DNA of 64,000 nt from a virus. Lineage: Duplodnaviria; Caudoviricetes. This document shows positions 1 through 58,957 of the stretch, piece by piece. Made by a program: the position numbers and the translations under genes. Below the pieces are notes generated by a model. It had not been told where the DNA came from and did not search any database. It saw only the letters and a list, made by a program, of their open reading frames with translations. The stretch is from positions 1,575 to 65,574 of the IMG/VR virus record IMGVR_UViG_3300046167_000447, one strand, 5' to 3'. Numbering within the stretch: the first letter of the stretch is position 1; each line of letters starts with the position of its first letter.

Positions 1-61
1 TTTTGAGGGGGAAAATTTTATTTGGCTCGTATCACATTTCTGCCCCATATTGCGAATGTCA

Positions 62-444
62 AACGGAAAGGGGGTAACCCTAGATGAGTAACACATAGAA
101 AGTCTTCCGTTAATGAGAGTGGAAATCGAAAGACCACGAAACGAGTTCAACTGAACTGCCTCTAAGAAACGACCGCTTCGATAGTCACTAGACGGGGATT
201 GCATCCCCACGGAGGTTCACCCAAGACTGAGAGTAGCAATCGCTACGGCACATCTGCAACTCAGTTACAAGCCCTCCCAACGAACGCTGAACAGACCTAG
301 AGTCCCTCGGGACAAGACGCACATTGATACTGCGAGAGGGTCGAGAGTAAGCAACGGAACAAGTCAAAACATCGAATCGAGCAAGTCCCTTACAATATCG
401 GGTAGAGTCTGCGTAACCGAGGTAGCGCCCCAAAATGACTCGTT
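62..444 (+). ncRNA. Candidate large structured leader/ncRNA at the left end
   Basis: No credible + strand ORF; nested helices such as 62-68/105-111, 140-147/437-444, 194-199/203-208, 211-215/273-277, 225-231/260-266 and 292-296/407-411. Confidence 0.45.
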
Positions 445-494
445 GGAACACCATTCAACCCTAGACGATACGGAAACACTTGTAACCCATTCCC

Positions 495-606
495 GTGGGG
501 TGAGTTGTAGAGCATTCAGCGTTACGTAGAGTATGCAGATTGTGACTACCCAAGGGAGAGCGAGACTCCCCACCCCACCTAACCCGAGCCGACCACGGCT
601 CACAAA
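495..606 (+). ncRNA. Early leader module 1: tRNA-like domain plus ACCAC hairpin
   Basis: GTGGGGTG/CACCCCAC closing stem, GGGAG-AGCGAGA-CTCCC arm, then GAGCC-GACCAC-GGCTC-ACAAA. Confidence 0.65.
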
Positions 607-616
607 TTGAATGATT

Positions 617-955
617 ATGACTAATTCAGCGAAATTGATGGAATCTCTAGAGGTAGCGGGTGCTAACATCAACCAACAACCATTGGTAGTTCTAAAGGCT
701 AACCCATACCTAGGTAAGTTCATCCTCAAGCAAAGCGATGTAAAGCTAAGTCTAGGAAGACCCGTAATCGAGACAACTCTTCACGATGCGGAAAGCGGTA
801 TGAAGATATTCACTGCTAGAGATGAGGATGCTGAGACCTTAGCATCAGCGAAATACGCTTTTACTGAGATGGAGTTCAACTGCATCCAAGATGCTATAGA
901 CAAGGCTAAAGCCAAAACCAAAGCGGTAGTAGATACGCTAGGATACTTAGAGTAA
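617..955 (+). CDS. Hypothetical early protein
   Basis: ORF; start set at 617 by conserved leader spacing. Confidence 0.75.
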   Translation: MTNSAKLMESLEVAGANINQQPLVVLKANPYLGKFILKQSDVKLSLGRPVIETTLHDAESGMKIFTARDEDAETLASAKYAFTEMEFNCIQDAIDKAKAKTKAVVDTLGYLE

Positions 956-962
956 TCCACCA

Positions 963-1032
963 AGCATATATGGTATTCAGCGGGGTTCGATTCCCCGCTA
1001 TGCTACTAACCGACCCGACCACGGGTCACAAA
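963..1032 (+). ncRNA. Early leader module 2: mini tRNA-like domain plus ACCAC hairpin
   Basis: AGCATA/TATGCT stem, ATGGT linker, GCGGGG-TTCGATT-CCCCGC T-arm, GACCC-GACCAC-GGGTC-ACAAA. Confidence 0.8.
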
Positions 1033-1042
1033 TTCAATTGTT

Positions 1043-1315
1043 ATGAATATTATTTCATGCCCATCAGCACTCATTGGATGCAATGAGTCTAATTTCAATC
1101 TAATCACCAAGGACGTAGCGGTGGTTAAATTTCCTTGCAAGGATACATATATCCTATACAACAAGGAGCAACAGACCTACGGGGTCTTTGATAACGAGAC
1201 CGATGAGTTGATATCCATAGGGTACAAAGGTCACGGATGCGTTATATTCGATAACCGATATTTCGGCAGAGATGAGTTCATCATCATAGAGACAATCTAC
1301 AGAATGTCTCTCTAA
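1043..1315 (+). CDS. Hypothetical early protein
   Basis: 90 aa ORF after leader module. Confidence 0.75.
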   Translation: MNIISCPSALIGCNESNFNLITKDVAVVKFPCKDTYILYNKEQQTYGVFDNETDELISIGYKGHGCVIFDNRYFGRDEFIIIETIYRMSL

Positions 1316-1383
1316 GCATATATGGTACAACGGGAGGTTCGAGTCCTCCCTATGCTACTAACCGAGCCACCACGGCTCACAAA
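1315..1383 (+). ncRNA. Early leader module 3
   Basis: AGCATA/TATGCT, GGGAGG-TTCGAGT-CCTCCC, GAGCC-ACCAC-GGCTC-ACAAA; compensatory changes relative to module 2. Confidence 0.8.
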
Positions 1384-1394
1384 TCCGATTGATT

Positions 1395-1781
1395 ATGAAT
1401 TTTTCAATGAATTTTATGACCCGCCAACTTGTACGTGCAAGAGGCATAGTGAACAACCGCATCGAGGCGGTAGAGTCCGACCTAACTAACGGGCTGAATG
1501 GAGGTCAAAGTCTGTCGCAGAAGTACGAAGAGATAGGCATTCTGTTAGCCTTGAAACTTAGACTAAAGAAGTCTATCAAGGAAACGGCAGAAGAAGGGCA
1601 CACTCGTAACTACCTAACGCTACCTATAGCTGAGTTAGAAATGCTTGAGTTGTTGGTTGAGTCCAAGAAGTTGCAGATGGTTGCAAAGGTAGGCGAGATG
1701 GACTACGAGGCATCTCCCGATGAGATACAAGAGTTAGCTGATTTCTTCAGTATGGGTGTGATTATCAGCAAAATTCAATAG
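1395..1781 (+). CDS. Hypothetical early protein
   Basis: ORF; ATG at 1395. Confidence 0.75.
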   Translation: MNFSMNFMTRQLVRARGIVNNRIEAVESDLTNGLNGGQSLSQKYEEIGILLALKLRLKKSIKETAEEGHTRNYLTLPIAELEMLELLVESKKLQMVAKVGEMDYEASPDEIQELADFFSMGVIISKIQ

Positions 1782-1801
1782 CTGACCCCTAATTTCACAA
1801 A

Positions 1802-1881
1802 GGGTAGTGGCTGACTGCAACAAGGTCAGCACCGACATCGTGGTCGGGCTACCCACTAACCGACCCACCACGGGTCACAAA
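1802..1881 (+). ncRNA. Early leader module 4: three-way junction plus ACCAC hairpin
   Basis: GGGTAG/CTACCC enclosing GCTGAC/GTCAGC and CCGAC/GTCGG hairpins, then GACCC-ACCAC-GGGTC-ACAAA. Confidence 0.7.
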
Positions 1882-1892
1882 ACTGAATTGCT

Positions 1893-2126
1893 ATGGCTAA
1901 GGTCACAAGAAGTACGGCGGGTGCAAACTTCCTCGCCAACAAGGATAAATTCAACGCAGAGTTCGTTGAGTTCAATGTCAATGAAAGACTCGTAGGTCGT
2001 GCAGAGCGCAAAGCCATGAAGCAAAGACTTGCAGAGTACAACAGAATGAAAAATGCCCCAAAGACCCCCGTGACTGCGGGATTCGTTGAGGTGAAGTCTA
2101 ACCTTAAATTTGCTTACGGAGTATGA
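1893..2126 (+). CDS. Hypothetical basic early protein
   Basis: 77 aa ORF after leader module. Confidence 0.75.
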   Translation: MAKVTRSTAGANFLANKDKFNAEFVEFNVNERLVGRAERKAMKQRLAEYNRMKNAPKTPVTAGFVEVKSNLKFAYGV

Positions 2127-2470
2127 GTGTTACTTTGAATACAATGATAGCCAAAGACCTATTCAATCTATGTGTTGATGGCGGTGCAAGTGTGTTAGGG
2201 AAGTTCGAGAATGACCGAGGTCAGCGTTTGCGTTTCTACGAGCACCCAATCTATGGGGAGGATTGCCCTATAATCGTAGCGTTCATAGACTACGGAGTTG
2301 CGTTCAACTCTACGTTCTATGATTTGCACGATATGACACAAAAGAACTGCGATGTTGTTTCCGTTGAGACTTGCATCAAGTTTGGGTTTGACCCTAATGC
2401 GGATGCGGACTACGTGCCGAGATACGTTGATGGGTATATGTTTTGTAAGTATGAAGAAAATGAAGATTGA
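2123..2470 (+). CDS. Hypothetical protein
   Basis: ATGA-coupled ORF. Confidence 0.7.
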   Translation: MSVTLNTMIAKDLFNLCVDGGASVLGKFENDRGQRLRFYEHPIYGEDCPIIVAFIDYGVAFNSTFYDLHDMTQKNCDVVSVETCIKFGFDPNADADYVPRYVDGYMFCKYEENED

Positions 2471-2472
2471 TT

Positions 2473-2643
2473 ATGGATGGTTTTACTAAGAATGTTGTCG
2501 CTTACTTGTTTTGTTGCGTAGCATCGTTTCTGTCTTTTGTAGTGGCGTACTGCGGTCACCCACCATTTTTTTTGCTTAGTCTATTTAGCTTTGCTTGTAG
2601 CTTTTGTATTTTGTTGAACTCTAAAATGAATGAGAATGAGTGA
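2473..2643 (+). CDS. Small hydrophobic membrane protein (56 aa)
   Basis: Manually read ORF MDGFTKNVVAYLF... filling the gap between genes. Confidence 0.5.
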   Translation: MDGFTKNVVAYLFCCVASFLSFVVAYCGHPPFFLLSLFSFACSFCILLNSKMNENE

Positions 2644-2932
2644 AGTTGTTGAAGTGAGAGACAATGTCTCTGTGAGATTTGCTTTCGGGCAGAACCAAAA
2701 AGTAGACCTTGGTAGAGCGGTCTATATGGTGTATAGCCACGAGGATGTTTACCACCCTCAGCTACTGAAAGTCTTCCATAGATTGGAGGATGCCGTTGAG
2801 TATGCGAGTGCTTACGTTGAAGACAGAACGGACTCGTATTCTTGGATGGACTTCGAGATGCTCATCTATCAAGAGATGATTGCATTCGACTCCCATCTGC
2901 ACGAGTTCGATGGCGATGACGATGAGGAATAG
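2630..2932 (+). CDS. Hypothetical acidic protein
   Basis: ORF in operon. Confidence 0.7.
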   Translation: MRMSEVVEVRDNVSVRFAFGQNQKVDLGRAVYMVYSHEDVYHPQLLKVFHRLEDAVEYASAYVEDRTDSYSWMDFEMLIYQEMIAFDSHLHEFDGDDDEE

Positions 2933-2939
2933 ACTCATA

Positions 2940-3037
2940 AGGGTAAATGGTTGTCGAGTGTTCACTATCACTTGGCTCTGCGGGGTTCGATTCCCCGCTA
3001 CCTTACAAGTTTAACCGACCCTACCACGGGTCACAAA
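2940..3037 (+). ncRNA. Early leader module 5: tRNA-like domain with extra arm plus ACCAC hairpin
   Basis: AGGGTA/TACCTT, AATGGTT linker, GTCGAGTG-TTCACTAT-CACTTGGC arm, GCGGGG-TTCGATT-CCCCGC, GACCC-TACCAC-GGGTC. Confidence 0.78.
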
Positions 3038-3048
3038 ATTGAATAACT

Positions 3049-4416
3049 ATGGCTCGATTTGTAGCAGATGTTTGGGCACTTGCCCGATTGGAATTGAATC
3101 TTCAAGGATTCGAGATTATTGAAATGGCTTCCAAAAGCCAAGACTTATTCCGTAAGGCGGGAATCAACACCGCATCAACGGGTAAGATGAGTACGGGACA
3201 AGCCGTGAAGAAGATAGAGGCGGGTAGTAAATCCCACCCTATGGAAAGAGGAGGAGGCGAGGGAGTTGATTTGATTTTCGCTCTGCGTGATTCGGATGGT
3301 ACGTTAGCCGTGTATAGCCAAGATAAACCAAGCGGAGTTCAATACGATTGGGATTTACTTACCGAGGGTAAGGAATTTGGATGGTCTATAAAATCGGATG
3401 TCATTTCAAGATTCCGCTTTAGCCATCATCAGCTATTCGGAGTTAGAGGAAAGATGTACAGATTCGAGGAGAAAGGAACAGAATTAAAAACGCAGACCGA
3501 GTCTGCACAAACCACAAAGAGTATGGGACAACAGACTGACCCCTCAGCGCTAATTGCTCAAGCGCTTGAAATGATGAGCAAAGGTGGTTCAATTGATGAG
3601 TCTCAAGTGGAGGCTATTGTTGAGCGCAAGTTGAAAGCGGTTCAGCCACTCAAGGTTGAGGTCGTATCTGCTACGTCTACCAAGCGAGTCGAGATGGCTC
3701 ACAAGAGTTTCGCTGATGGCGTTGCGCTCTTGGGCTTAGGCAAGAATATCGCCTTAATTGGCGAGGCGGGTAGCGGTAAGTCTTTCGGGGCTATCCAAAT
3801 GGCTCAGTCGTTAGACTTAGACTACGTAGTTGAGTCTTGTCACGGCAAGATGCAGTCATTCGATTTGGTCGGGGCTATGTCTCCAACCACGGGTAGCTAC
3901 ATCAGCACCAAGCTACGGGATGCCTACGAGAATGGTAAGGTTCTCATCCTCGATGAGTTTGACCGCTCCAACACGGAGACCACTATCGCATTGAACGGAG
4001 TGTTAGCGGGTGATTGCTACGGATTTCCCGATGGGATGGTGACTCGCCACAAGGACTTCCGAGTGATTGCTTGTCAAAACACATTCGGAACGGGAGCATC
4101 CAAGACCTACGCATCAGCTAAGGCTCAAGATGGCTCTACGCTGACTCGATTCACTCGATTAGAGTGGAACATAGATGCTCACTTAGAGAGAGCTATCTGT
4201 GGTCACAACGATGTCACACGAGCGGTGCAGATGGTTCGCAAGAATGCTAAGGATAACGGCTACGACCAAATCCTTATCACTCCTCGCCAATGTATGGATG
4301 CTAACCAAATGGTTGATGCCCTTGGGTGGGATTTGAAAAAGGCTATCAACTTCTCTTGTCTCAATGGCTTGGCTGATGATATCAAGAAGAGATTACTCAA
4401 TGGAGTGTCTCTCTAA
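3049..4416 (+). CDS. MoxR/CbbQ/CobS-like AAA+ ATPase
   Basis: Walker A GEAGSGKS, Walker B ILDEFD, FPDG..RHKDFRVIACQNT segment. Confidence 0.88.
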   Translation: MARFVADVWALARLELNLQGFEIIEMASKSQDLFRKAGINTASTGKMSTGQAVKKIEAGSKSHPMERGGGEGVDLIFALRDSDGTLAVYSQDKPSGVQYDWDLLTEGKEFGWSIKSDVISRFRFSHHQLFGVRGKMYRFEEKGTELKTQTESAQTTKSMGQQTDPSALIAQALEMMSKGGSIDESQVEAIVERKLKAVQPLKVEVVSATSTKRVEMAHKSFADGVALLGLGKNIALIGEAGSGKSFGAIQMAQSLDLDYVVESCHGKMQSFDLVGAMSPTTGSYISTKLRDAYENGKVLILDEFDRSNTETTIALNGVLAGDCYGFPDGMVTRHKDFRVIACQNTFGTGASKTYASAKAQDGSTLTRFTRLEWNIDAHLERAICGHNDVTRAVQMVRKNAKDNGYDQILITPRQCMDANQMVDALGWDLKKAINFSCLNGLADDIKKRLLNGVSL

Positions 4417-4436
4417 GGCGTTCACTATCACGCTGA

Positions 4437-4508
4437 GGGTGCATGGTGTAAGAGGGGGTTCGACTCCCCCTCACCCCACTACTAATCGAGTCTACCACGA
4501 CTCACAAA
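4437..4508 (+). ncRNA. Early leader module 6
   Basis: GGGTG/CACCC, CATGGTGTAAG linker, AGGGGG-TTCGACT-CCCCCT, GAGTC-TACCAC-GACTC-ACAAA. Confidence 0.8.
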
Positions 4509-4518
4509 TAGATTGCTT

Positions 4519-5406
4519 ATGCGATATGAAATCAAAGGGAAACTATGCAAGACCCACACCACGTTCAGCGAGTTCGTTGAGATGTCCAACAGAGAGGACT
4601 TAGTCTACGAGAGTTCGGATGCAAGAACGGGAGCAAGAGATAGTTTCTACGGGAACATCAAGTCTTACCAAGAGATGTACGATGCTTGTTACAATGGTAT
4701 GGGCGTTAAGAAGATGCTTAAGGCTCGTGCAGACCTCAACAACTTAATGAACCACGAGGTTGAAGAGCCACGCAAGGCTATCGTTGGAGAGACCCTAAAC
4801 GTAGGGGCTTACTGCGCGGGTAATCCTCACCACTTCTACAAAGACGCTGATGAGTACGGAAGGCCACGGGTACACATAGTCTATAGCACTAATGCGGTAG
4901 CGGATGTTAGGTCTTCTCAGTTCACGAGACACGGGGCATCAATCTGTGCTTTGGTTGACCAACTTGGTGAGCAAGTCGATGTGAAGATTAGCCTGTACAT
5001 CACAAACAAATGGGTTTTCGGTGGTAATGGTTGTCAAATCGTTACTATCAAAGACTACGAGGATGTAATTGACGTGCCCCGTGTGTCAGCTACGGCTCAT
5101 CCAAGTTTCTTCCGTAGAATAGGTTTTGCTTGGTTCGAGAATGCAGACAAGCTAATCCAAAAGGGATTAGGAACGGGTACGGGAGGCTCGTACACAGGTA
5201 GTGACAGACCTTACGTAATCAAGGACGATGAGTTCATGGATTGGGTTGGAATCGAGAAAGGAGAGATGATGATTGACTTTCCCGCTCCCGATGAATACCA
5301 ATTCAAAGATGATGAGGGTACTGCTTATTGGCTGAAACAATCTACCAAGAAGATTGAGAAAGCGGTTGAGGAGGAAAGTAGTATCTGTAAATTATTCGGA
5401 TTATGA
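4519..5406 (+). CDS. VWA-like partner of the AAA ATPase
   Basis: Adjacent to MoxR-type ATPase; G.LNVGAY..G.P and HPSFFRR..F motifs seen in such phage partners. Confidence 0.6.
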   Translation: MRYEIKGKLCKTHTTFSEFVEMSNREDLVYESSDARTGARDSFYGNIKSYQEMYDACYNGMGVKKMLKARADLNNLMNHEVEEPRKAIVGETLNVGAYCAGNPHHFYKDADEYGRPRVHIVYSTNAVADVRSSQFTRHGASICALVDQLGEQVDVKISLYITNKWVFGGNGCQIVTIKDYEDVIDVPRVSATAHPSFFRRIGFAWFENADKLIQKGLGTGTGGSYTGSDRPYVIKDDEFMDWVGIEKGEMMIDFPAPDEYQFKDDEGTAYWLKQSTKKIEKAVEEESSICKLFGL

Positions 5407-5422
5407 TTTATTTAGACTTGGC

Positions 5423-5453
5423 GGTGGGCATCGTGCAAACGATGTTCGCCTTT
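5423..5453 (+). terminator. Strong hairpin, possible terminator or processing site
   Basis: GGTGGGCATCGT-GCAA-ACGATGTTCGCC followed by TTT. Confidence 0.45.
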
Positions 5454-5520
5454 AGTATTTTAGGACAAGCAACGCTGACTGCGGTGTTGCTAATTATAAA
5501 CTCGTTAAAAAGTAAAAAAG

Positions 5521-5727
5521 ATGAGTAAGGATTTGACTTTTGCAATTGTCCTTGAGGACAATACGCTAACAGACTTGACCACCCGATTGGTGGGTGAGTT
5601 GGTTACTATGGGGCTTATTACTGATTACAATTTCTCGGAAACGGAAACGGAAATCGAGGCTCATAATGTGATAATGGACTTTCTTCAAAATGAGATAAGT
5701 GTATTAAAAGCACAGACTGATGAGTGA
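5521..5727 (+). CDS. Hypothetical protein
   Basis: ORF with A-rich leader. Confidence 0.65.
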   Translation: MSKDLTFAIVLEDNTLTDLTTRLVGELVTMGLITDYNFSETETEIEAHNVIMDFLQNEISVLKAQTDE

Positions 5728-5886
5728 TGGAAAGTTAGCACGGATAAATGGTTGGAGAGTCGTGCCTCCAACAGACAAGACCCATGAGTACAGGCTAACG
5801 GGTTTTACCTTAGGTAACAAGGTGGAGGTAGTCTGTTGTGCAAATGGACAGAGATTTGATACAATGCTAATACACAAGAATAAATT

Positions 5887-6186
5887 ATGAGAGATTTTAT
5901 CGTGGGCACACTTATACTATCGAGCGGAGCGTGGGCATCGCTCGGGTTCTACAACAGAGATTTCGGGATGCTAATTATAGGAGCGATGTTTTCGCTACTT
6001 CTTCTGCTCTTTGTTGTTGGTGAGTTCATCTACAAAAGATGGATTCTAAGTAGACTACCTAAGTTCGTAGCTATCAGCTACGGAGATGAGTGGTTCTTGA
6101 GAGATGAGCGTGGTGTTATGCACCAATCATACAGAAAAGAGGTCAGCGACCTAATGTTAAGTGGACAAGTAACTAAATTTGAATAG
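5887..6186 (+). CDS. Hypothetical membrane protein
   Basis: Two hydrophobic segments. Confidence 0.65.
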   Translation: MRDFIVGTLILSSGAWASLGFYNRDFGMLIIGAMFSLLLLLFVVGEFIYKRWILSRLPKFVAISYGDEWFLRDERGVMHQSYRKEVSDLMLSGQVTKFE

Positions 6187-6465
6187 CATGCTAGTAGCAA
6201 CTGCAATCATTTCATTCGTAGCTAACACAGGAGTGTTGGCTTATGTAGGTTATCAAAGCGGTAACCAAGTATCAACTTTAAAAGCAAGGAGCAATGCCCG
6301 TAAATAAAGAGATATGGTTCGCTTACCGAGGCGTACAAGATGCGGGTTACTTCAATGTGTTTGACCCAAGGGCGAGAGCGTTGGCTAACGAAGTCAACGA
6401 TATGAATATCACAAAAGAACAATGGACTTTTGTTATTACTAATTACGATAAATTAAAAGAGACCT

Positions 6466-6819
6466 ATGAGTAGTCTAGTTGATGTGCGAGAACTTCCGAT
6501 GCACACAAAAATGGAAGTAGCGGTTGGACACGCTTTTGATGTCCTAAACGGAAAGGTCAACTCTGTTTTGTTTGACTCGGATGCTCAACCACTTGATGAG
6601 GCAGAGCGTTCATTCTACCTAATCTCTCCCGACACTATGGTTGTCGTAGAGGGTGCTGAGGAAATTCGCAACATCATCGAGGAGGACTTCAAGTTTATCC
6701 AAGGTCGTGATGTGAAGTTACTAATCAACAGACTCTCCGAGAATGTGGTTGGTATTGCAGTCTGTCACTTTGATAAAGATTGCTTGAGTGTGTCTTCCTA
6801 CAAGGGCGAGGAAGAGTAG
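6466..6819 (+). CDS. Hypothetical protein
   Basis: 117 aa ORF. Confidence 0.7.
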   Translation: MSSLVDVRELPMHTKMEVAVGHAFDVLNGKVNSVLFDSDAQPLDEAERSFYLISPDTMVVVEGAEEIRNIIEEDFKFIQGRDVKLLINRLSENVVGIAVCHFDKDCLSVSSYKGEEE

Positions 6820-6913
6820 ACCCTATAGTATGGAGGGCGGTGTGTAGCAGACCGCTCTCTGTACTTAATGATTAACCGCTACATCTTAAACAACAACTTT
6901 AATTCATATTCAA

Positions 6914-7096
6914 ATGAACAATTCAATTATTTTCAAGTTTGGCTCACTAAAATTAGTAGGAACGCAAAAGGCTGATGGTAGCACTTTCAAGGTGTTTTGG
7001 GACGGCATATACCAAGAGTTAATCACATCCAAGGAGAAAGACTTAGATGTTGCCTCGGAGCGTGTTACTGAGCAGTTAATGGGTGTTATACTTTAA
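6914..7096 (+). CDS. Hypothetical protein
   Basis: 60 aa ORF with AT-rich leader. Confidence 0.6.
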   Translation: MNNSIIFKFGSLKLVGTQKADGSTFKVFWDGIYQELITSKEKDLDVASERVTEQLMGVIL

Positions 7097-7108
7097 CACC
7101 AAAGAGAG

Positions 7109-7522
7109 ATGAGCAACACAACATCTTGGGGAGGAATCCCTTATAGCAGAGACTACTACATAGAGTTAGCAGAACTGCAAGACTTTGAGATGGTTAATCA
7201 GCTATTGGCTTATGCGATTGCTGAGTCCGAGTCTACGATAGAATACTACGTTAGTGTAGCTGACACGGAAGGTTACTTCTCGGAATCCGATGCTTGTTCG
7301 TACGGAGACCTTACAAGGGATATAGCTTACTCGGATATGGTGGATGACATCACCGAGACATTCCAAAAGGCTAACAGACTCGATTCAGTTCAGTCTGTTA
7401 ATGATTTATACAAGAGTAAATTCAAGGACATCACCTTGCTTACTCCTTACGTGTTTGAAGAACTGATGGAAGAGATATCAAGCAACGTCGGTTTAGTGGT
7501 AGACTTAGAGCCTTGGGGCTAA
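7109..7522 (+). CDS. Hypothetical acidic protein
   Basis: Starts within the TTTAACACCAAAGAGAGATG repeat. Confidence 0.7.
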   Translation: MSNTTSWGGIPYSRDYYIELAELQDFEMVNQLLAYAIAESESTIEYYVSVADTEGYFSESDACSYGDLTRDIAYSDMVDDITETFQKANRLDSVQSVNDLYKSKFKDITLLTPYVFEELMEEISSNVGLVVDLEPWG

Positions 7523-7525
7523 TAA

Positions 7526-7584
7526 TAGGGGCGGGTTCGAATCCCGCTCTACCACCTCAGTAGAATGTTCACTATCAACATTCT
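7526..7584 (+). ncRNA. T-loop minihelix ending in ACCA, plus CACTAT-loop hairpin
   Basis: GGGGCGGG-TTCGAAT-CCCGCTCT-ACCA and AGAATGTT-CACTATC-AACATTCT. Confidence 0.55.
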
Positions 7585-7670
7585 CACCCTCAGCGACCCC
7601 GACTAAAGTGGTTTTATAAATTCGGGATAGAGGGTAACAATATTTATTCACCAATTTTAACTCAGTTGTT

Positions 7671-8084
7671 ATGATTAACACTAAAGAAAAGACCTTAGAG
7701 TATTGGCTCGGAGAAAGGTTAAAGAAGAGCGGAGAGGTTTCGCAGAGCGCAAAACTAAGAAACAGACTTGATGCTTGGTTCATCAAGAAAGGATTCAAAC
7801 CAATTCACATAGCGTATAGTGAAAACTTCTCGGAGTATTACAACAACACGACTTCACAAGTAATCTCTGTGAATGAGATAGACTACTTTGATGATAGTCT
7901 GTTAAGTAGTAACTCTTGGGTTTTGGCGCACGGATTCCTTATGCCGTATAATGCTCTATACGACTTTGGCGTTATGTGGGAGATTCGTGAAAAGTCTTAC
8001 ACAGATGTAGATAACTCAACTGAACGGCAGTTGATTGACACTTTAGAATTATTAATTGAAAATGGAATAGCTTATGAACTTTGA
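7671..8084 (+). CDS. Hypothetical protein
   Basis: 137 aa ORF. Confidence 0.7.
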   Translation: MINTKEKTLEYWLGERLKKSGEVSQSAKLRNRLDAWFIKKGFKPIHIAYSENFSEYYNNTTSQVISVNEIDYFDDSLLSSNSWVLAHGFLMPYNALYDFGVMWEIREKSYTDVDNSTERQLIDTLELLIENGIAYEL

Positions 8085-8481
8085 TGACATTATGAGTGGG
8101 GGACTCACACCCAAGTCAAGAATGGGAGAAAACATAACCGATATATTCGGTGTTGACTCGGACTTCGCAATGAAGACAACGAGGGATTTAGTCAAGCTAA
8201 CAACTGACACGGAATCTACTGATGCTGACATCATTCAGTCTGCATTGGCGATGTGTGAAACCAAGGAAGAGTTGGCTGTTGTCTTGCACTTACACACTAA
8301 AACTTTGGTTAGCAAAATGGCTGACCAATTCGAGGAAGCAAGTGCGCTCTTAGAGGATACTAAGGATGTCCTTGAATCGTTGGGAGAAGATGTCTTGATG
8401 AGATACGCTGAAGGAATGATGCAGAAACTCATGGAGAGAATGGGCGGTAGTCTTGACGACTTAAACTTAGATGAAGAGTAG
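8074..8481 (+). CDS. Hypothetical acidic protein
   Basis: 135 aa ORF. Confidence 0.7.
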   Translation: MNFDDIMSGGLTPKSRMGENITDIFGVDSDFAMKTTRDLVKLTTDTESTDADIIQSALAMCETKEELAVVLHLHTKTLVSKMADQFEEASALLEDTKDVLESLGEDVLMRYAEGMMQKLMERMGGSLDDLNLDEE

Positions 8482-8495
8482 TTACTTAGTAACTC

Positions 8496-8568
8496 ACACG
8501 TGCACGTGTACGCACTATATCATATACCATTGTAGAGAGAGTAGCATATATGCTACTACTCTCTCTAC
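8496..8568. repeat. Palindromic element copy 1 (candidate origin or operator)
   Basis: ACACGTG palindrome, CTATATCATATACCAT box and 17-bp inverted repeat with 3-nt bulge; second copy at 43243-43309. Confidence 0.7.
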
Positions 8569-8589
8569 TTAACTATTAATAATCACATT

Positions 8590-8787
8590 ATGAAAGTATT
8601 TGTAATAAAATTACTAACCCCTAACAGAAGAACGGGAGGATTCATCTCCGATGTCGTTGGGGTTTTTGACATTGAGTCTGTTGCTTTTGAGGAATCCGAA
8701 AGGATTGACAACGAACAGAAAGAAGATTGGGGTGATGGAGGATTTACTACTATCGAGCCATTCGAATTAAATGAATCGACCTTATGA
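8590..8787 (+). CDS. Hypothetical protein
   Basis: 65 aa ORF. Confidence 0.65.
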   Translation: MKVFVIKLLTPNRRTGGFISDVVGVFDIESVAFEESERIDNEQKEDWGDGGFTTIEPFELNESTL

Positions 8788-9080
8788 GTAGAATGCACAA
8801 CCTAAGGGTAGATACCTACAAAGTAACAGAATGCACATCTGTTAACTTAATCTCCTATGAAGATGACCTTGGTTCTACTAAGGTTATGATGGAAGGAGAG
8901 ACATACTATTCCGTTGAGGGTAACATTGCAGTTATGTCTGTGATGGATGAACAGACCATAGAGATATGGGATGAACGTGCTGAGAAAGGCATTGAGAACT
9001 TATTGTTTACGGATTATGAATCTGTAAGTAAGTATTGGGGTGATATAAAAGTGATATACAATTTAAACGAGAGAAAATGA
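8784..9080 (+). CDS. Hypothetical protein
   Basis: Coupled ORF. Confidence 0.7.
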   Translation: MSRMHNLRVDTYKVTECTSVNLISYEDDLGSTKVMMEGETYYSVEGNIAVMSVMDEQTIEIWDERAEKGIENLLFTDYESVSKYWGDIKVIYNLNERK

Positions 9081-9445
9081 CAGAATCAAATGTTTATGGG
9101 GTCTTGATAGACCCTATTAATGGAGTGACCATCAAAGAATTCGGTGGAGAGATTGGATTAGATGAGATGTATTCAGCAATCGATTGCGAATACGTTGAGC
9201 TATCAGTCCTAACCGATGAGCTAGACCTATGGGTCGATGAGGAAGGATTCATCAACGGAGCAACACAGAGGGTTGGAGTGTTCCAAGTTCAAGATGCGGA
9301 TGGCGAGAGACTCGGTCAGCCAATGTATGCGGGTAAGGGTCTTATCCTTGCCTCCGACAACGAAGGTCGCATTGTAGGTCTAACGAAAGAACGGGCAGAG
9401 GCTATAGTCGGTAGCTTAATGTTTCAAACATCTATGTCTCTATGA
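9077..9445 (+). CDS. DUF3846-like protein
   Basis: L..MY.AIDC..VE and LWVDEEG motifs. Confidence 0.7.
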   Translation: MTESNVYGVLIDPINGVTIKEFGGEIGLDEMYSAIDCEYVELSVLTDELDLWVDEEGFINGATQRVGVFQVQDADGERLGQPMYAGKGLILASDNEGRIVGLTKERAEAIVGSLMFQTSMSL

Positions 9446-9534
9446 TAACAGAATCAACCAATGGAGAATTTATTTTTACGTTGCCTTGTTTTAGGGCAAC
9501 ATTTCATTTATATTAATTTAAACAACTTCAATTT

Positions 9535-10107
9535 ATGAGTAAACTTCAAACTGCTTTAATCAAGGTTCAATCGGAACTAAAAGCACCTAAGAACCAAAGA
9601 AACAACTTTGGGAAGTACAACTACCGCTCTGCTGAGGACATTCTCGAGGCGGTTAAACCTTTGCTATCTGCAAACGGATTGACAATGACAATCACGGACT
9701 CTGCTGAAGAGCTAGGCGGTATGGTGGTTATCACCTCTACTGCAACGATTACAGATGGTACTGACTCTGTTTCCTCATCTGCTCAAGCGGGTGTTGACCC
9801 TAACAGAAAAGGTATGGACATTGCTCAGTCATTCGGCTCATCGAGTTCTTATGCTCGTAAGTATGCAATGAACGGACTTCTTCTTATCGATGATACTAAG
9901 GATGCTGATGCTACCAATACTCACGGACAGACTGCCTCAAGCAGACCCGCAACGTCTCAAGGCGATGATGGTGATTGGTTCTCGAAAGCCATTGAATATA
10001 TAAAGAACGCTAACGACAAGAACCAAGCGTTCGAGTTAGTCAAGAACAAGTACGGAGCAACTGCAAGTGAAAAGCAGATTGGCGCACTAAAGAAGTTCGT
10101 TAAGTAA
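9535..10107 (+). CDS. erf: ERF-family single-strand annealing protein
   Basis: LKAPKNQRNNFGKYNYRSAEDILEAVKP and GSSSSYARKYA motifs. Confidence 0.92.
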   Translation: MSKLQTALIKVQSELKAPKNQRNNFGKYNYRSAEDILEAVKPLLSANGLTMTITDSAEELGGMVVITSTATITDGTDSVSSSAQAGVDPNRKGMDIAQSFGSSSSYARKYAMNGLLLIDDTKDADATNTHGQTASSRPATSQGDDGDWFSKAIEYIKNANDKNQAFELVKNKYGATASEKQIGALKKFVK

Positions 10108-10910
10108 TGCAGTTCGCACAAGCAATACAAGAGAAAACGGGGAAGGGGTATGTATCCGCTTCCTCGTTGAAGTATGCTATCACGGGTAGCAAAGACTTCG
10201 ATATGATGGCTTGGGAACTCAATATGAAAGGAGAACTCAAGAAGACTTCTAAGGCGTTCACATTCGGTGGATTCTTTGATAGTCTGTTGTTAACTCCCAA
10301 TGAAACTTGGGACAGATACGTTGTCTTAAAGGATGATGAGATTTGTGAAGAGATTGGCGGTAAGAACCCTCGTGCTACTAAGCGTTACAAAGAATGGAAA
10401 GCAGAGCAGATGGGTGACAAGGAGTTAATCACACAAGTCGAGTACAATGTAGCTAAGGTTATGTGCCGTAGGTTACGCAACTCCGAGGTCGTTGACCACG
10501 ACACGGGAGAGATTGTAAAGCTAGACAGATTCATTCAAGGCAATGCTCAACAAGAGTTTAACACTTGGATTGGAGATGTGCCCGTACGAGGCTTCTTAGA
10601 TGTCTTGGGCGATGGATTCATTACCGATGTCAAGACTTCATCACGTAGTCTGTCTCAGTTCAAGTGGGATGTTCGTGACTACAACTACGACCTACAAGCG
10701 TGGATGTACTGCGAGGTCTACGGAACTAAAGACTTCTATTGGTTAGTACAGACTAAAGACAAACCTTATACTTGTGGTCTGTTCAAAGCTACTGATGAGA
10801 CTCTTGCTAACGGAGAGCGCAAGTTCTACGATGCGGTTGGAAACATCAGTAATTGGTTAGTGGAAGAACCTAAAGACACATCAACATTTGCCGTACAAGG
10901 CTCAATTTAA
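10107..10910 (+). CDS. PD-(D/E)XK exonuclease (RecE/DUF3799-like)
   Basis: RGFLD, DVKT and Y.YDLQAWMY motifs; next to ERF. Confidence 0.82.
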   Translation: MQFAQAIQEKTGKGYVSASSLKYAITGSKDFDMMAWELNMKGELKKTSKAFTFGGFFDSLLLTPNETWDRYVVLKDDEICEEIGGKNPRATKRYKEWKAEQMGDKELITQVEYNVAKVMCRRLRNSEVVDHDTGEIVKLDRFIQGNAQQEFNTWIGDVPVRGFLDVLGDGFITDVKTSSRSLSQFKWDVRDYNYDLQAWMYCEVYGTKDFYWLVQTKDKPYTCGLFKATDETLANGERKFYDAVGNISNWLVEEPKDTSTFAVQGSI

Positions 10911-10922
10911 AATCAAGTAAGT

Positions 10923-11330
10923 ATGAATATGTTTAGACTTAGGTTAGTGCTGAGGACACTTAAAAGAACCCTCAACAAAGTTATCTATGGTAGACACAAG
11001 GTCAACTATAATAACTCTACGCTCCTTTTCTTGGAGTCGGCTATGGAGAATATGTATGGAGTAGACTTAAACGTCCCGCAACACGGACACAAAGAAGTGC
11101 AACTCAAAAGATTCTTTATTAACTTCTTAGTCGCAGAAACAGATTGGAGCGTAATGGAAATCAGCAGAAGATTTAACTCTGCGGGTATCATAGCCAATGG
11201 ATTATCGAGAAGAACTATGCAGTATTACGTCAACTCTCACGCAGACGAACTGAAAGAAATTTCTCCTAATTCAGTAACTTACGCAAGAGCATACAGAACA
11301 TTCACAAAAACTTTAATTTCAATTCTTTAA
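10923..11330 (+). CDS. Hypothetical protein, possibly DNA-binding
   Basis: 135 aa ORF. Confidence 0.6.
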   Translation: MNMFRLRLVLRTLKRTLNKVIYGRHKVNYNNSTLLFLESAMENMYGVDLNVPQHGHKEVQLKRFFINFLVAETDWSVMEISRRFNSAGIIANGLSRRTMQYYVNSHADELKEISPNSVTYARAYRTFTKTLISIL

Positions 11331-11333
11331 ATT

Positions 11334-11654
11334 ATGAGCAATCAAAATCAAAACTATCAAAACGACCCATTAGTAGGATTCACTAACGCACCACGTGTTG
11401 AGTTACGAATCTCATTCACAGAGGCAGAACTCAATGACCTCAAGCAGTATCTAACGGGCAAGGACACCAAGCGTGTGTACTTAACAATCAAGTCGGGTGA
11501 GAAGAAAGACAAGAGCGGTACATACAACATCTGCTCAGTCTACGACCCGAACAAAGGTCAAGGCACTCAAGCATCTCAGCAGTTTGCACAGAGCCAAGGC
11601 GCACCCGCACCGAGCCAAGCAAACAACACGAATTCGGATGACTTACCATTCTAA
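11334..11654 (+). CDS. Single-stranded DNA-binding protein-like
   Basis: Low-complexity linker and DDLPF C-terminus; recombination context. Confidence 0.7.
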   Translation: MSNQNQNYQNDPLVGFTNAPRVELRISFTEAELNDLKQYLTGKDTKRVYLTIKSGEKKDKSGTYNICSVYDPNKGQGTQASQQFAQSQGAPAPSQANNTNSDDLPF

Positions 11655-11677
11655 GTCGCAGACTTAATAACTACATC

Positions 11678-11706
11678 AGCCTCGCTCCATCGGAGCGGGG
11701 CTTTTT
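11678..11706 (+). terminator. Rho-independent terminator
   Basis: AGCCTCGCTCC/GGAGCGGGGCT stem followed by T run. Confidence 0.8.
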
Positions 11707-11709
11707 AAT

Positions 11710-11748
11710 GCAGAGGATGGTCAATGTGGTTCGACTCCACGCTCTTGC
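11710..11748 (+). ncRNA. Mini tRNA-like element without ACCAC hairpin
   Basis: GCAGAG/CTCTTGC, GATGGTCAA linker, TGTGG-TTCGACT-CCACG. Confidence 0.55.
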
Positions 11749-11994
11749 CCTAATTTTAAATTCAATCACAAATGAAAAAGCTATTATTACTTAGTCTGTT
11801 TGTTGTTTTACCAAGCGAATTAAACACAACAGAAGAGGTCTACCTTGAATCAAAAAGAAACGAACTTGACTCTACTTCAGTCATTAAAACAAACCACTAA
11901 AATATTTAACTATGACAGATTCAATAAGTGCAATATTTCTACTCATAGTCTTGGCTTATTGCTTAGACAAACTAACTTCGCTAATAGAATAACT

Positions 11995-12333
11995 ATGAAA
12001 GCACTAACCAAAGTATTAGCTATGCACCTTTACTCGGAAGGTATGGGTGAGGTTAGCGAGATAACAGACACGACCTTTTGGATTGAAGGTCAACGCAAGA
12101 ACAAGGTTGAGGTTTACGGAACTCACTTAGGCAGAGAAATTAATCTGTCAAATTGTTGTTTATGTGCGGATTTTTTATTACTATCTCTTTTCGACAAAAC
12201 GGGTGACAACGTAATCCTAATGAAGACAAGCGAAGTAAAAGACAGACTAAAAGACAATCAAATATCCTTAGTGGATATGGCTGAGATTATAGTTTATCGA
12301 TGGCAAGTAGAATTTTTACCAACAAAAGAATAA
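11995..12333 (+). CDS. Hypothetical protein
   Basis: Part of ORF 11845-12333; likely start MKALTK at 11995. Confidence 0.55.
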   Translation: MKALTKVLAMHLYSEGMGEVSEITDTTFWIEGQRKNKVEVYGTHLGREINLSNCCLCADFLLLSLFDKTGDNVILMKTSEVKDRLKDNQISLVDMAEIIVYRWQVEFLPTKE

Positions 12334-12344
12334 AACCAAAGAGA

Positions 12345-12470
12345 ATGAATGAGCAAGAGAAAGTCACAAAGATTCTATTTGCCTTGATGGTATTTACAAT
12401 TGTGCGTCTAGCCTTTATTGTTATTGGATTAATGTATGTCTATGCACACCCTACAATAAGTTTAAGATAA
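12345..12470 (+). CDS. Small membrane peptide, paralog A
   Basis: MNEQEKVTKILFALMVFTI...YVYAHPTISLR. Confidence 0.6.
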   Translation: MNEQEKVTKILFALMVFTIVRLAFIVIGLMYVYAHPTISLR

Positions 12471-12622
12471 AATTATGAATAGAATACCAAGTTATCCAAG
12501 TGCAACAAAAGCAGTTTTTATAGGAATAATTATAGCATTGATTTTATACTTTGTGATGCTGAATCTAATTTCCTACAACCCCCAATAAACACCCTACAAT
12601 AAGTTTAAGATAAAATTATGGA

Positions 12623-13783: not shown

Positions 13784-14053
13784 ATGGGCAGAAGGAAGAT
13801 GATTTACGACTCTATAGTTAGGGTTAAGTTCAAGAAGACAGCTAAAGCAAAAGGTTGGACTGAGAGAGAATTAAATACGGTGAGTGTATGTGAAACTCCA
13901 ATAGAATTCAACTCAACTCCACGAGCCTTAGAGGGACTCAAGCAGATGGTATTCGATAAGAAGTCTGTCGGTTTTAGAACCAAGGGAAACTTTGTAGTTG
14001 TAGAGGTAAAGGAAAAGAAACCAATTAGTGAAAGTTTTTATTACTATGATTAA
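13784..14053 (+). CDS. Hypothetical protein
   Basis: 89 aa ORF. Confidence 0.7.
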   Translation: MGRRKMIYDSIVRVKFKKTAKAKGWTERELNTVSVCETPIEFNSTPRALEGLKQMVFDKKSVGFRTKGNFVVVEVKEKKPISESFYYYD

Positions 14054-14717
14054 ATTAACAGACAAGATAATATCCGAGTTCTTTCCGAGGGACAATCGGT
14101 TTCTCCACTTTGTAGCCAAGAAGCACGGACAATTCTTCATAAACGAAGATGATGTTGAACGTGCGTCTTTCTACGCTTTGGAATACATACTCAAGAAGCG
14201 AGGCGAGGAGTTTGAGAATATGTCTCATGTAAACTCGTTGGCTGAATGGGCTTTTCGTGGTGCTATTTCTAGGATGATATCCTACAACCAAGCACAGAAG
14301 AGAGATGTCGAGGTTTACTCCGAGTCGGACTTCTATGCAGACCATGATGATGCAAGAAGCGTTATGGACAATCTGTTCGAGATGCAACCCGAATTGGATA
14401 CGCTACTGACAGATGCAAAGCAATGCTTGGAGGACAAGGATTACGACATCATTAAGATGATAACCCTTGGGTACAATATGGTCGAGATTGGAGAGAAGTA
14501 CAATCAAAGTGCAGAATCCATAAGACAAAGAAAAATCAAAGTTATTAAGCAATTAAGAGTTTATTATGAAATTGACAAGAGAACTGATAGAGTCAATGGC
14601 GAGAGTCTACGAAAAAGAATACAACGTAAATCCTCTAAAAAAGAGAAGGTACAAAGAAGTCGTGCTGAGTCGGCAATCGATTATCTCTATTCTAAAGAAA
14701 AGGTTTTCGCTGAGTGA
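14046..14717 (+). CDS. Sigma-70-like factor (region 4 HTH)
   Basis: L..KDYDIIKM..LGYNMVEIGEKYNQSAESIRQRK resembles sigma region 4; start at ATG 14046. Confidence 0.6.
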   Translation: MIKLTDKIISEFFPRDNRFLHFVAKKHGQFFINEDDVERASFYALEYILKKRGEEFENMSHVNSLAEWAFRGAISRMISYNQAQKRDVEVYSESDFYADHDDARSVMDNLFEMQPELDTLLTDAKQCLEDKDYDIIKMITLGYNMVEIGEKYNQSAESIRQRKIKVIKQLRVYYEIDKRTDRVNGESLRKRIQRKSSKKEKVQRSRAESAIDYLYSKEKVFAE

Positions 14718-31817: not shown

Positions 31818-31829
31818 TACAAATATACG
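31818..31829 (-). promoter_or_regulatory. Bacteroidota -7 promoter element
   Basis: CGTATATTTGTA on - strand (TAnnTTTG). Confidence 0.65.
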
Positions 31830-34161: not shown

Positions 34162-34173
34162 TGCAAATATACG
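34162..34173 (-). promoter_or_regulatory. -7 promoter element 5 nt before ATG (possible leaderless mRNA)
   Basis: CGTATATTTGCAAATATG on - strand. Confidence 0.65.
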
Positions 34174-39638: not shown

Positions 39639-39650
39639 TGCAAATATACG
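39639..39650 (-). promoter_or_regulatory. -7 promoter element
   Basis: CGTATATTTGCA on - strand. Confidence 0.65.
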
Positions 39651-40591: not shown

Positions 40592-40602
40592 GCAAATATA
40601 CG
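40592..40602 (-). promoter_or_regulatory. -7 promoter element
   Basis: CGTATATTTGC on - strand. Confidence 0.65.
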
Positions 40603-43188: not shown

Positions 43189-43199
43189 TGCAAATATAC
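43189..43199 (-). promoter_or_regulatory. -7 promoter element of scaffold/capsid operon
   Basis: GTATATTTGCA on - strand. Confidence 0.65.
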
Positions 43200-47265: not shown

Positions 47266-47276
47266 TGCAAATATAC
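47266..47276 (-). promoter_or_regulatory. -7 promoter element
   Basis: GTATATTTGCA on - strand. Confidence 0.6.
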
Positions 47277-58946: not shown

Positions 58947-58957
58947 TGCAAATATAC
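58947..58957 (-). promoter_or_regulatory. -7 promoter element
   Basis: GTATATTTGCA on - strand. Confidence 0.65.

Follow-up and report, generated by a model that had tools for sequence, protein, structure and literature searches.

Nut sites of phage lambda consist of boxA and a boxB hairpin that is bound in nascent RNA by the small phage protein N; RNase III sites between T7 early genes, T4 RegA operators and the ompA 5' hairpin cut, stabilize or co-repress mRNAs or guard the 5' end, and hairpin-guided cutting exists for RNase Y and Cas6. The early promoters of phage N4 are hairpins of 5-7 base pairs (bp) with a 3-nucleotide (nt) loop and both conserved and freely covarying stem bases, and they lie in a conserved block from -17 to +1 with a fixed four-base run between stem and start (excerpts of PMC4496689). 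Plant mitochondrial t-elements are described, in the excerpted text of PMC1920247, as contributing to 5' and 3' end formation. Little is known of early gene expression in phages of Bacteroidota, which translate without Shine-Dalgarno pairing. Here we describe a covarying stem-loop with an (N)ACCAC loop that stands six times before early start codons in a 64,000-nt stretch of phage DNA (the window, bases 1575-65574 of the 65,574-base virus record IMGVR_UViG_3300046167_000447; coordinates are those of the window unless stated otherwise). The hairpin is a genuine, undescribed signal that most likely acts at the RNA level. In the reading that we favor, at a probability of roughly 50%, it belongs to a three-part RNA module: a polycistronic early RNA is processed, and the hairpin bounds each translation start region on the 5' side, where it probably serves as the docking site of a lineage-specific protein. 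That the hairpin has an RNA-level role of one form or another is probable. The six copies read as follows, the bit scores being those of the covariance model introduced below:

580-619, plus strand: module 1; TAACCC 580-585, stem GAGCC 586-590, loop GACCAC 591-596, stem GGCTC 597-601, ACAAA 602-606, leader, ATG at 617; 54.8 bits
1007-1045, plus strand: module 2; TAACC 1007-1011, stem GACCC 1012-1016, loop GACCAC 1017-1022, stem GGGTC 1023-1027, ACAAA 1028-1032, ATG at 1043; 60.2 bits
1359-1397, plus strand: module 3; TAACC 1359-1363, stem GAGCC 1364-1368, loop ACCAC 1369-1373, stem GGCTC 1374-1378, ACAAA 1379-1383, ATG at 1395; 53.4 bits
1857-1895, plus strand: module 4; TAACC 1857-1861, stem GACCC 1862-1866, loop ACCAC 1867-1871, stem GGGTC 1872-1876, ACAAA 1877-1881, ATG at 1893; 46.8 bits
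3012-3051, plus strand: module 5; TAACC 3012-3016, stem GACCC 3017-3021, loop TACCAC 3022-3027, stem GGGTC 3028-3032, ACAAA 3033-3037, ATG at 3049; 50.7 bits
4483-4521, plus strand: module 6; TAATC 4483-4487, stem GAGTC 4488-4492, loop TACCAC 4493-4498, stem GACTC 4499-4503, ACAAA 4504-4508, ATG at 4519; 47.3 bits

An initial annotation, made from the letters of the window, had listed these six hairpins with their loops, the ACAAA run and the gaps from stem end to ATG (15, 15, 16, 16, 16 and 15 nt for modules 1 to 6), and all of them were found exactly as claimed. The core pattern ACCACNNNNNACAAA has six exact matches in the window, all on the plus strand, against a mean of 0.22 in shuffled sequence, and six matches were reached in none of 100 shuffles; the entire 65,574-base record contains six forward and no reverse matches. 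With filters off, the covariance model finds the six copies only (46.8-60.2 bits), and the runner-up in the window scores 11.7 bits (E=7). All copies share a single orientation and are confined to the leftmost 4.5 kb, where each heads an early unit. Module 4 heads a unit of four overlapping genes (1893-2932), module 5 precedes an AAA_5 ATPase gene (3049-4416) and module 6 a DUF7192 gene (4519-5406), while the first gene has a second in-frame ATG at 611 besides ATG 617. The predicted energies of the RNA hairpins range from -5.5 to -10.6 kcal/mol. That the element was not recognized as a described RNA family agrees with Rfam, in which no family reached its gathering threshold over the window and positions 1-12500 gave only sub-threshold matches at chance level; a literature search found neither the motif nor tRNA-like punctuation described for flavobacterial phages. 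Upstream of the window, at bases 1270-1385 of the record, three plus-strand boxes GTTC(G)CCACGG(C/G)T carry the CCACGGSTC half of the hairpin without its pairing partner. Boxes of this kind also occur upstream in two relatives (L009 and L010), and CCACG[GA][CG]T words number 13 in the record, all on the plus strand.

Relatives were collected by means of the module-5 ATPase gene, which gave five IMG/VR contigs (58-70% identity) and 18 metagenome loci, and a covariance model was built from 25 copies of the window and its relatives. This check in relatives, which the initial annotation had suggested, returned 78 matches at E<=3 in 23 sources, about 50 of them distinct (50 alignment rows, or 52 when the longer context is counted); all are in gene orientation and all precede a start codon. 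In the 25-copy alignment the stem pairs in 125 of 125 cells, with pair 3 being GC in 13 copies and CG in 12, pair 4 CG in 23 and UA in two, and pair 5 CG in 24 and UG in one. The covariation score was reached in none of 500 shuffles, and sliding the partner by 1-3 columns brings pairing down to 1-50%. The basal G-C and A-U pairs are invariant in the 5-bp form, and swapped pairs are seen at two of the five stem positions. Relatives also show compensated pair deletions, GAGC/GCTC without the closing pair and GCCC/GGGC without the A-T pair, each on both sides; one copy is half-way, with A opposite G at the closing position, and another has U-G. Toward its 3' side the loop reads ACCAC, with two exceptions among the distinct copies (ACCCAC and AACTAC). 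The stem is maintained by selection as a stem. Because it is kept by swaps and deletions while the basal pairs and the loop stay fixed, shape and sequence are both likely read by something.

The motif has a narrow distribution. Exact-pattern scans of 2.9 million viral contigs found it in the small clade of this phage only, plus two probable chance singletons, and the covariance model had no match in bases 1-45,000 of the N4 locus or in the first 50 kb of the uncultured phage MW202828.1, a stretch holding five of the hairpin sites of that phage described below. A scan of cellular genomes (596 Gb) with ACCACGNNTCACAAAT gave at least 120 single matches in many phyla, with at most one per contig among the matches listed; thousands of matches are expected by chance in 596 Gb by our estimate, which makes the cellular scan uninformative.

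The spacing between hairpin and start codon was taken from 51 of the 52 distinct copies, the remaining one having an AACTAC loop outside the search pattern. Between stem end and ATG there are 14 nt in 10 copies, 15 nt in 30 and 16 nt in 11. Adenine occupies -12 in every one of the 51 copies, -7 in 43, -11 in 42, -13 in 41, -6 in 39 and -3 in 23. For Flavobacterium johnsoniae, the excerpted text of Baez et al. 2019 (PMC6847099) names A-3, A-6, A-12 and A-13 as positive determinants of initiation, places bS1 near nt -12 to -15 during initiation and describes a host group without Shine-Dalgarno use. Set against this description, the start region here is of the Bacteroidota A-rich type, with adenines at -12/-13, -6 and -3. 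The gap would be fixed because ACAAA places adenines at -11 to -13, positions favored in F. johnsoniae, and the match of the A positions to these determinants means that ACAAA should belong to the mRNA. ACAAA is therefore best read, from its position in the sequence, as the upstream A tract of the start region, with the hairpin directly outside. The initial annotation had tied the constant distance to initiation without Shine-Dalgarno pairing; that connection is apt, the fixed spacing being accounted for by the ACAAA tract and not by the hairpin. The internal genes of unit 4 and the middle genes start without a hairpin, and the middle genes have a separate conserved leader, TTTAAAACCAAAGAGAGATG, in eight copies, also with A at -6, -12 and -13.

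Each of the six hairpins, the first included, comes directly after a tRNA-like fold with G-U pairs, 6-18 nt upstream; these folds, and the leader before the first of them, are:

44-494, plus strand: structured leader, apparently non-coding, with 78-79% identity to three loci (L018, L037 and L027)
495-578, plus strand: cloverleaf-like fold before module 1; closing stem GTGGGGTG 495-502 / CACCCCAC 571-578, last arm GGGAG-AGCGAGA-CTCCC 554-570
963-1005, plus strand: tRNA-like minihelix; AGCATA 963-968 / TATGCT 999-1004, T-arm GCGGGG-TTCGATT-CCCCGC 980-998, A1005
1315-1357, plus strand: tRNA-like minihelix; AGCATA 1315-1320 / TATGCT 1351-1356, T-arm GGGAGG-TTCGAGT-CCTCCC 1332-1350
1802-1855, plus strand: Y-shaped tRNA-like fold; stem 1802-1808 / 1848-1854, two arms with 7-nt and 6-nt loops, variant T-arm
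2938-3005, plus strand: tRNA-like fold; stem 2938-2942 / 3001-3005, arm with loop TTCACTATC, T-arm GCGGGG-TTCGATT-CCCCGC 2980-2998; z -4.11
4436-4477, plus strand: tRNA-like minihelix; T-arm GAGGGGG-TTCGACT-CCCCCTC 4452-4472

In nine relatives the 8-bp stem GUGGGGUG/CACCCCAC closes a multi-arm structure before module 1, with GC/GU and UA/CG changes, and 13 of its 31 predicted pairs are altered on both sides. A canonical T-arm, GGTTCGAnTCC, on an acceptor-like stem is present in four of the six upstream folds and recurs at 11728; the neighboring folds have the acceptor-type stem stacked on a T-arm with a UUCRANY T-loop that is typical of t-elements. ARAGORN called none of the upstream folds a tRNA, and the fold at 963-1004 has a weak, non-significant likeness to mascRNA-menRNA (19.8 bits, E 4.5, below threshold). 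For the region 1779-1892 the predicted minimum free energy is -36.9 kcal/mol, and in the relative L025 the arm homologous to one in the Y-shaped fold pairs via a G-T wobble, as expected for RNA. By analogy, the tRNA-like folds may punctuate mRNAs in the way of organelle t-elements. Compensatory changes are also visible in the leader at 44-494 (~450 nt), whose mismatches by codon phase are 36/47/37 with no codon periodicity; it may be a large leader or a separate RNA. With this leader and a conserved RNA fold lying upstream of it, copy 1 should be inside a transcript.

Some further observations concern these folds. Those with GGTTCGAnTCC carry UGGU, a D-loop remnant; a pairing of this UGGU with the ACCAC loop was considered and rejected, since UGGU is better read as such a remnant, and a loop ACCA acting as a mimic of the tRNA 3' end was rejected on the grounds that the MW202828 loop is TTAA. 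The hairpins at 2955-2978, 4419-4437 and 7560-7587 have a common loop TTCACTATC(A); two of them form an arm of, or adjoin, a tRNA-like fold and one follows a tRNA-Tyr. The word CACTATC is also found as AACACTATCAAAA before many genes of phage phi38:1 and as CAACACTATC-ATG in MW202828.1. Another tRNA-like fold lies at about 11710-11750, after a strong terminator at 11678, with no hairpin behind it. The 93-nt tRNA-Tyr (GTA) at 7464-7556 is the sole tRNA called by ARAGORN, although no Rfam family, that of tRNA included, reached its threshold in the window; it may be an unusual or long-arm tRNA.

The phage itself is a marine Bacteroidota podophage. By terminase, its nearest cultured relatives are the Flavobacterium elemo phages (41% identity) and Cellulophaga phages phi46:3, phi13:2 and phi38:1 (35-38%); the terminase of the uncultured MW202828.1 is 44% identical, and crAss-like phages are distant only. 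Window positions 1-6000 had no match by blastn in a phage collection, and the sequence of the record is present in seawater and marine metagenome runs. Judging by the phage relatives and the promoter type, the host most likely belongs to the marine Flavobacteriia. The record has a direct terminal repeat of ~860 bases, record bases 1-~860 being found again at window 63137-64000 with few differences (a short stretch); it holds tandem GGTTATAAGGAAT-like iterons at about 63745-63810. Plus-strand genes run rightward to about 21 kb, and leftward genes from 62.5 to 21.6 kb include the terminase, the portal, a crAss-type muzzle protein and two adjoining giant open reading frames (ORFs) of 2126 and 1255 amino acids (aa).

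The signals for transcription can be given as follows:

5423-5450, plus strand: terminator-like hairpin followed by TTTAGTATTT, just past the sixth hairpin-headed unit
31820-31827, 34164-34171, 39641-39648, 40593-40600, 43191-43198, 47268-47275, 58949-58956 and 62606-62613, minus strand: late-gene -7 boxes TATATTTG
7098, 12335, 13138, 19017, 19272, 19408, 19724 and 19921: middle-gene leader (TTTAA)AACCAAAGAGAGATG, nearly identical, abutting start codons

In the first 12 kb the only plus-strand terminator-like hairpins with a T run are that at 5423-5450, a weak one at 9480 and one at 11678-11702, and there is none between the early units. Host sigma-A promoters of Bacteroidota have -33 TTTG and -7 TAnnTTTG, and no TAnnTTTG box lies in any of the intergenic regions before the six early units. 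The terminal repeat contains a rightward promoter of host type (TTGACA-17-TACCTTTG, 63460-63490), and a -7-like box, GAT(T/A)TTTG or (T/G)ATGTTTG, is located 567-640 nt before the first hairpin in four lineages. This frame of promoters and terminators suits a single long early transcript. The TATATTTG boxes stand 5-45 nt before late ORFs in 8 of 8 cases checked, mostly as TTTcgTATATTTGca, and are of the Bacteroidota -7 type; at 34171 there are 5 nt from box to ATG. Five CACC(C/A)TA boxes lie 22-36 nt before the starts at 12447, 12590, 13119, 13375 and 19393, and together with the middle-gene leader they make up a second class of promoter or leader cassette. The ORF at 14046-14717 (223 aa) has a weak Sigma70_r4 match (E 2.6e-4, 20.9 bits, below the Pfam cut-off). 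It may encode a phage sigma-like factor, and the match hints that later gene classes are transcribed by the host polymerase together with a factor of the phage.

In MW202828.1 another hairpin takes up an equal setting. Its early region contains nine sites with GTGTCG-TTAA-CGACAC, and seven or more of these precede annotated early genes; the sites are preceded by TAAYC(N), followed by an A-rich leader and placed 16-39 nt from the ATG. The hairpin is the sole feature of intergenic gaps of 38-42 nt, and in many cases the upstream gene stops at the TAA of the lead-in. The sites (within 1542-6900) are perfect 16-base palindromes, GTGTCGTTAACGACAC, which often begin 3 nt past the upstream stop codon. 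A viral scan for the palindrome gave 11 stretches, of which one contig (L165) has several copies, one of its four in an early-gene context; the single matches elsewhere are in coding sequence and at chance level by estimate. Phages elemoD and phi38:1 have no such hairpins before their early genes, and in phi38:1 tRNA-like folds are followed by CTAATAATCACAAAAC and then ATG, which are equal flanks without the hairpin. From these comparisons we infer that the hairpin is a lineage-specific insert between a stop codon or tRNA-like fold and the start region, that its sequence co-evolves with the phage, and that it needs a minimum and not an exact distance from the ATG. The different hairpin in the equal setting of MW202828.1 points to a partner co-evolving with the phage, and its distances of 16-39 nt speak against ribosome docking with a strict geometry. 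In a search for a co-occurring binding protein, 41 plus-strand ORFs were compared by local tblastn with MW202828.1, elemoD, phi38:1 and N4, which gave six matches; none was to an early gene except one small ORF shared with phi38:1.

In the favored three-part module, the first piece would be a tRNA-like fold with acceptor-type stem and T-arm. The second, 6-18 nt downstream, would be UAAYC and a 4-5 bp stem with loop (N)ACCAC, and the third, directly 3' of the stem, the initiation region in which ACAAA supplies the adenines at -11 to -13. Host RNA polymerase would start upstream of the structured leader and read to the terminator-like hairpin at 5423-5450, and enzymes of the RNase P and/or RNase Z type would cut at the tRNA-like folds, so that each early mRNA would carry the stem-loop close to its 5' end, only a few bases in. 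In this place it could shield the 5' end and hold the A-rich start region clear of pairing with upstream structure. The invariant loop and stem bases would dock a protein that is specific to the lineage and probably encoded by the phage, and through it all early mRNAs would be controlled together, by stability or translational shut-off. At 15-16 nt the hairpin would then be as near as it can come without entering the initiating ribosome or putting the A tract out of register. We favor an RNA-level role because RNA structure and a translation signal adjoin the hairpin, copy 1 appears to be inside a transcript, the promoters and terminators frame an operon, and searches for a polymerase by sequence motifs and profiles found none. 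The initial annotation had offered a structured translation enhancer or a protein-binding element: a protein-binding RNA element by the start region is what we prefer, and an enhancer that docks the ribosome at an exact distance does not fit the 16-39 nt of MW202828.1. The preceding tRNA-like folds, the place of copy 1 in a conserved structured transcript and an N4-type promoter as an alternative go beyond that annotation.

Several points weigh against this reading. The 5' ends, the cleavage and the transcript are all deduced from sequence, the single upstream promoter is likewise conjectural, and the binding protein and its effect are hypothetical. Cutting on the 5' side of the tRNA-like stem of module 3 would truncate the upstream stop codon, since the minihelix at 1315 begins in the last base of the stop codon 1313-1315. 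In MW202828.1 a tRNA-like fold precedes only one of the six copies whose upstream flank was examined, and the link to tRNA-like processing is for this reason not general. The proposed box upstream of the first hairpin is imperfect, since it begins with G and not T. Host-type -7 boxes are almost absent from the 21-kb plus-strand region, so some non-host class of promoter must exist there. A conserved block of ~25-30 nt found only at early unit heads in the leftmost 4.5 kb is the layout of phage-polymerase promoters, for example in N4. Finally, stem variation is narrow, at two of five positions with two alternatives each and G-U in 1 of 125 cells, and such variation suits base-specific reading of B-form DNA at least as well as an RNA stem.

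The strongest alternative is that the elements are N4-style early promoters, DNA hairpins or dyad duplexes read by an RNA polymerase injected with the DNA, so that the units would be transcribed separately and the tRNA-like folds would mark or process the 3' ends of the preceding units. A hairpin with invariant and covarying stem positions, lying in a conserved block before left-end early genes, is what N4 promoters show, and here too the copies are found at unit heads only, in one orientation in the leftmost 4.5 kb. The genome is laid out like N4: it has terminal repeats and codes for a giant virion protein, the early and middle genes are on the plus strand, and the late genes are on the minus strand behind host promoters. 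Host promoters are scarce on the plus strand. The predicted energies of the DNA hairpins (-2.2 to -7.2 kcal/mol) are within the range of N4 (P1 -3.3, P2 -5.3), and the narrow, Watson-Crick-only variation of the stem suits base-specific reading of DNA. Against this, the loops are of 5-7 nt and not 3 nt, copy 1 follows a conserved RNA structure that would need another promoter, and a start 5 nt past the stem would exclude the A tract at -11 to -13 from the mRNA. ElemoD and phi38:1, with homologous giant proteins, show no such hairpins before early genes. On balance we regard an N4-style promoter as unlikely, though it is the alternative that fares best.

A hidden polymerase in a giant virion protein has a precedent in P23-45 gp96, which was spotted by its DFDGD motif, of the DxDxD type (excerpts of bioRxiv 10.1101/2022.12.01.518664), and the giant protein of the present phage (21614-31790, minus strand), split into 2126 and 1255 aa, is a single chain of 2,111-3,716 aa in the listed relatives, most of them >3,000 aa. 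However, motif and profile searches found no polymerase signature in any ORF. The motif D[FYWLIVM]DxD is absent from the 2126- and 1255-aa virion ORFs, and DxDxD from the 2126-, 1255-, 502- and 1286-aa ORFs except for DKDND in the muzzle protein; the carriers of DLDGD and DYDTD are a fibre protein and an Ig-like tail protein. No polymerase emerged from phmmer and two profiles against all PDB sequences (N4 mini virion RNA polymerase (vRNAP) and phi14:2 gp66 included), from T7-type motif patterns, or from Pfam and PHROGs on the large ORFs and their relatives. Alignment of the giant-protein family with N4 gp50 (vRNAP) by hhalign gave a probability of 0.6%, a protein atlas search with the 1255-aa ORF returned unnamed viral clusters only, and the PF00940 search had no match, its controls being silent too. 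Residues ~1400-2040, the conserved core of the giant protein, place it in a family with no polymerase match, which comprises 201 clusters at 50% identity, mostly of proteins of 2,000-3,800 aa; the core carries HEFGH (HExxH) in relatives and QFGH here, plus a separate HEAFH at residue ~761, and the giant protein of one relative carries an ADP-ribosyltransferase domain. By these features the family looks like injected polyvalent proteins. That the hairpins are DNA-hairpin promoters for an unrecognized kind of RNA polymerase in a giant injected virion protein of widespread Bacteroidota podophages is doubtful, and more so than the N4-style reading in general.

The next alternative would make the hairpin itself a processing signal, at which a hairpin-guided endoribonuclease, either a host enzyme of the RNase Y/E type acting in the single-stranded UAAYC next to the stem on its 5' side or a Cas6/Csy4-like phage enzyme, cuts the early RNA so that the hairpin serves as a cap, be it of the 5' end thus created or of the 3' end upstream. 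UAAYC and a stable stem are kept in two lineages although the hairpin sequence differs, and in MW202828.1 the hairpin is the only feature in its short gaps, 3 nt past the stop codon. But the TAA of the lead-in in MW202828.1 is often just the upstream stop codon, a site for processing is already available in the tRNA-like fold a few bases away on the upstream side, the early ORFs yielded no candidate nuclease, and the sequence itself shows no cut. We rate this reading as improbable.

Slightly weaker again is a direct role in translation, in which the hairpin itself would bring in the 30S subunit, or set its position, at a constant distance and so replace Shine-Dalgarno pairing by structure. It would account for the distance of 14-16 nt in 51 of 51 copies and for the A/C-rich single strands of loop and flanks, in a host group that does not use such pairing (excerpts of PMC6847099). 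The A tract already accounts for the spacing, however, and the internal genes of unit 4 and the middle genes, with their leader TTTAAAACCAAAGAGAGATG, do without a hairpin. The variable distance in MW202828.1 is at odds with it, as is a hairpin sequence that varies by lineage while ribosomes are conserved, and the scan of cellular genomes gave scattered single matches only, among those listed. We therefore place little weight on this reading. The boxB analogy raised by the initial annotation, in which the nascent hairpin would bind an antiterminator for read-through of downstream stops, is very unlikely: a 5-bp stem, a 5-6 nt loop, an upstream single-stranded box and the position at early units resemble boxA-boxB, but the loop is not GNRA-like and no boxA consensus is present, there are six or more copies per early region with no intrinsic terminators between units, and the strict coupling to start codons is left unexplained.

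Each early intergenic region thus stacks three signals, a tRNA-like fold, a covarying sequence-specific stem-loop and an A-rich start region, and this offers a compact system for asking whether phage mRNAs are punctuated by tRNA-like folds as in organelles, how a whole early gene set comes under the control of one RNA (or DNA) operator, and what the minimal 5' context for strong translation in Flavobacteriia is. In contigs of uncultured marine phages, the covariance model serves as a marker of early regions. If the promoter reading were true, it would point to an unknown virion polymerase, and the N4 strategy would have a further, independent example in a lineage close to the crAss-like phages. 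Of these, phi14:2 is described in excerpts of bioRxiv 10.1101/2020.03.07.982082, which report early transcripts without a detectable common upstream motif and a virion polymerase that prefers single-stranded DNA, and the promoters of crAss-like virion polymerases were not identifiable in that study. The text of PMC8776804, which names neighboring phage families, has 0 occurrences of 'RNA polymerase' and 0 of 'promoter'.

Among known systems, N4 P1-P3 share with the present element a short hairpin with invariant and covarying bases, a conserved block of ~20-30 nt at the heads of left-end early units, a fixed short run after the stem and a structured element of the preceding unit just upstream; in the N4 sequence, early units consist of terminator hairpin, promoter hairpin and gene, with ~10 nt between the P2 hairpin and the ATG annotated for gp2. 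They differ in the loop (3 nt in N4, 5-7 nt or 4 nt here), the stems here being of 4-5 bp (6 bp when an extra loop base is G), in the T7-like polymerase domain that N4 has in its 3,500-aa virion protein and that was not found here, and in the distance to the ATG, which here is fixed and matches a translation signal. The hairpin 3' half (CTCAC-AAA) resembles T7-group promoter cores, which without a polymerase is no more than a curiosity. Two-barrel virion RNA polymerases (crAss-like gp66, P23-45 gp96) have DxDxD in a large virion protein, unlike the large virion ORFs here. Lambda nut sites are similar in their 5-bp stem, 5-nt loop and conserved single-stranded box on the 5' side, and differ in the type of loop and in their boxA consensus, while here six copies are tied to start codons with no terminators between units. 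Sites of RNase III form long irregular helices, those of RegA lack structure and extend over the AUG, and the ompA hairpin is not known to have a conserved sequence, whereas here a 4-5 bp stem with an invariant loop stands at -16 to -31. Mitochondrial tRNA punctuation and t-elements, and MALAT1/mascRNA, resemble this locus in having tRNA-like folds between coding regions that are able to define mRNA ends; the likeness concerns the neighbor of the hairpin and not the hairpin, and such folds were not described for phage early operons in the literature searched. The A-rich start regions of Bacteroidota, which in the excerpted description have no upstream hairpin, correspond to ACAAA and the leader only, and in that part the two agree, with A at -12 and -13 and often at -6 and -3 (PMC6847099).

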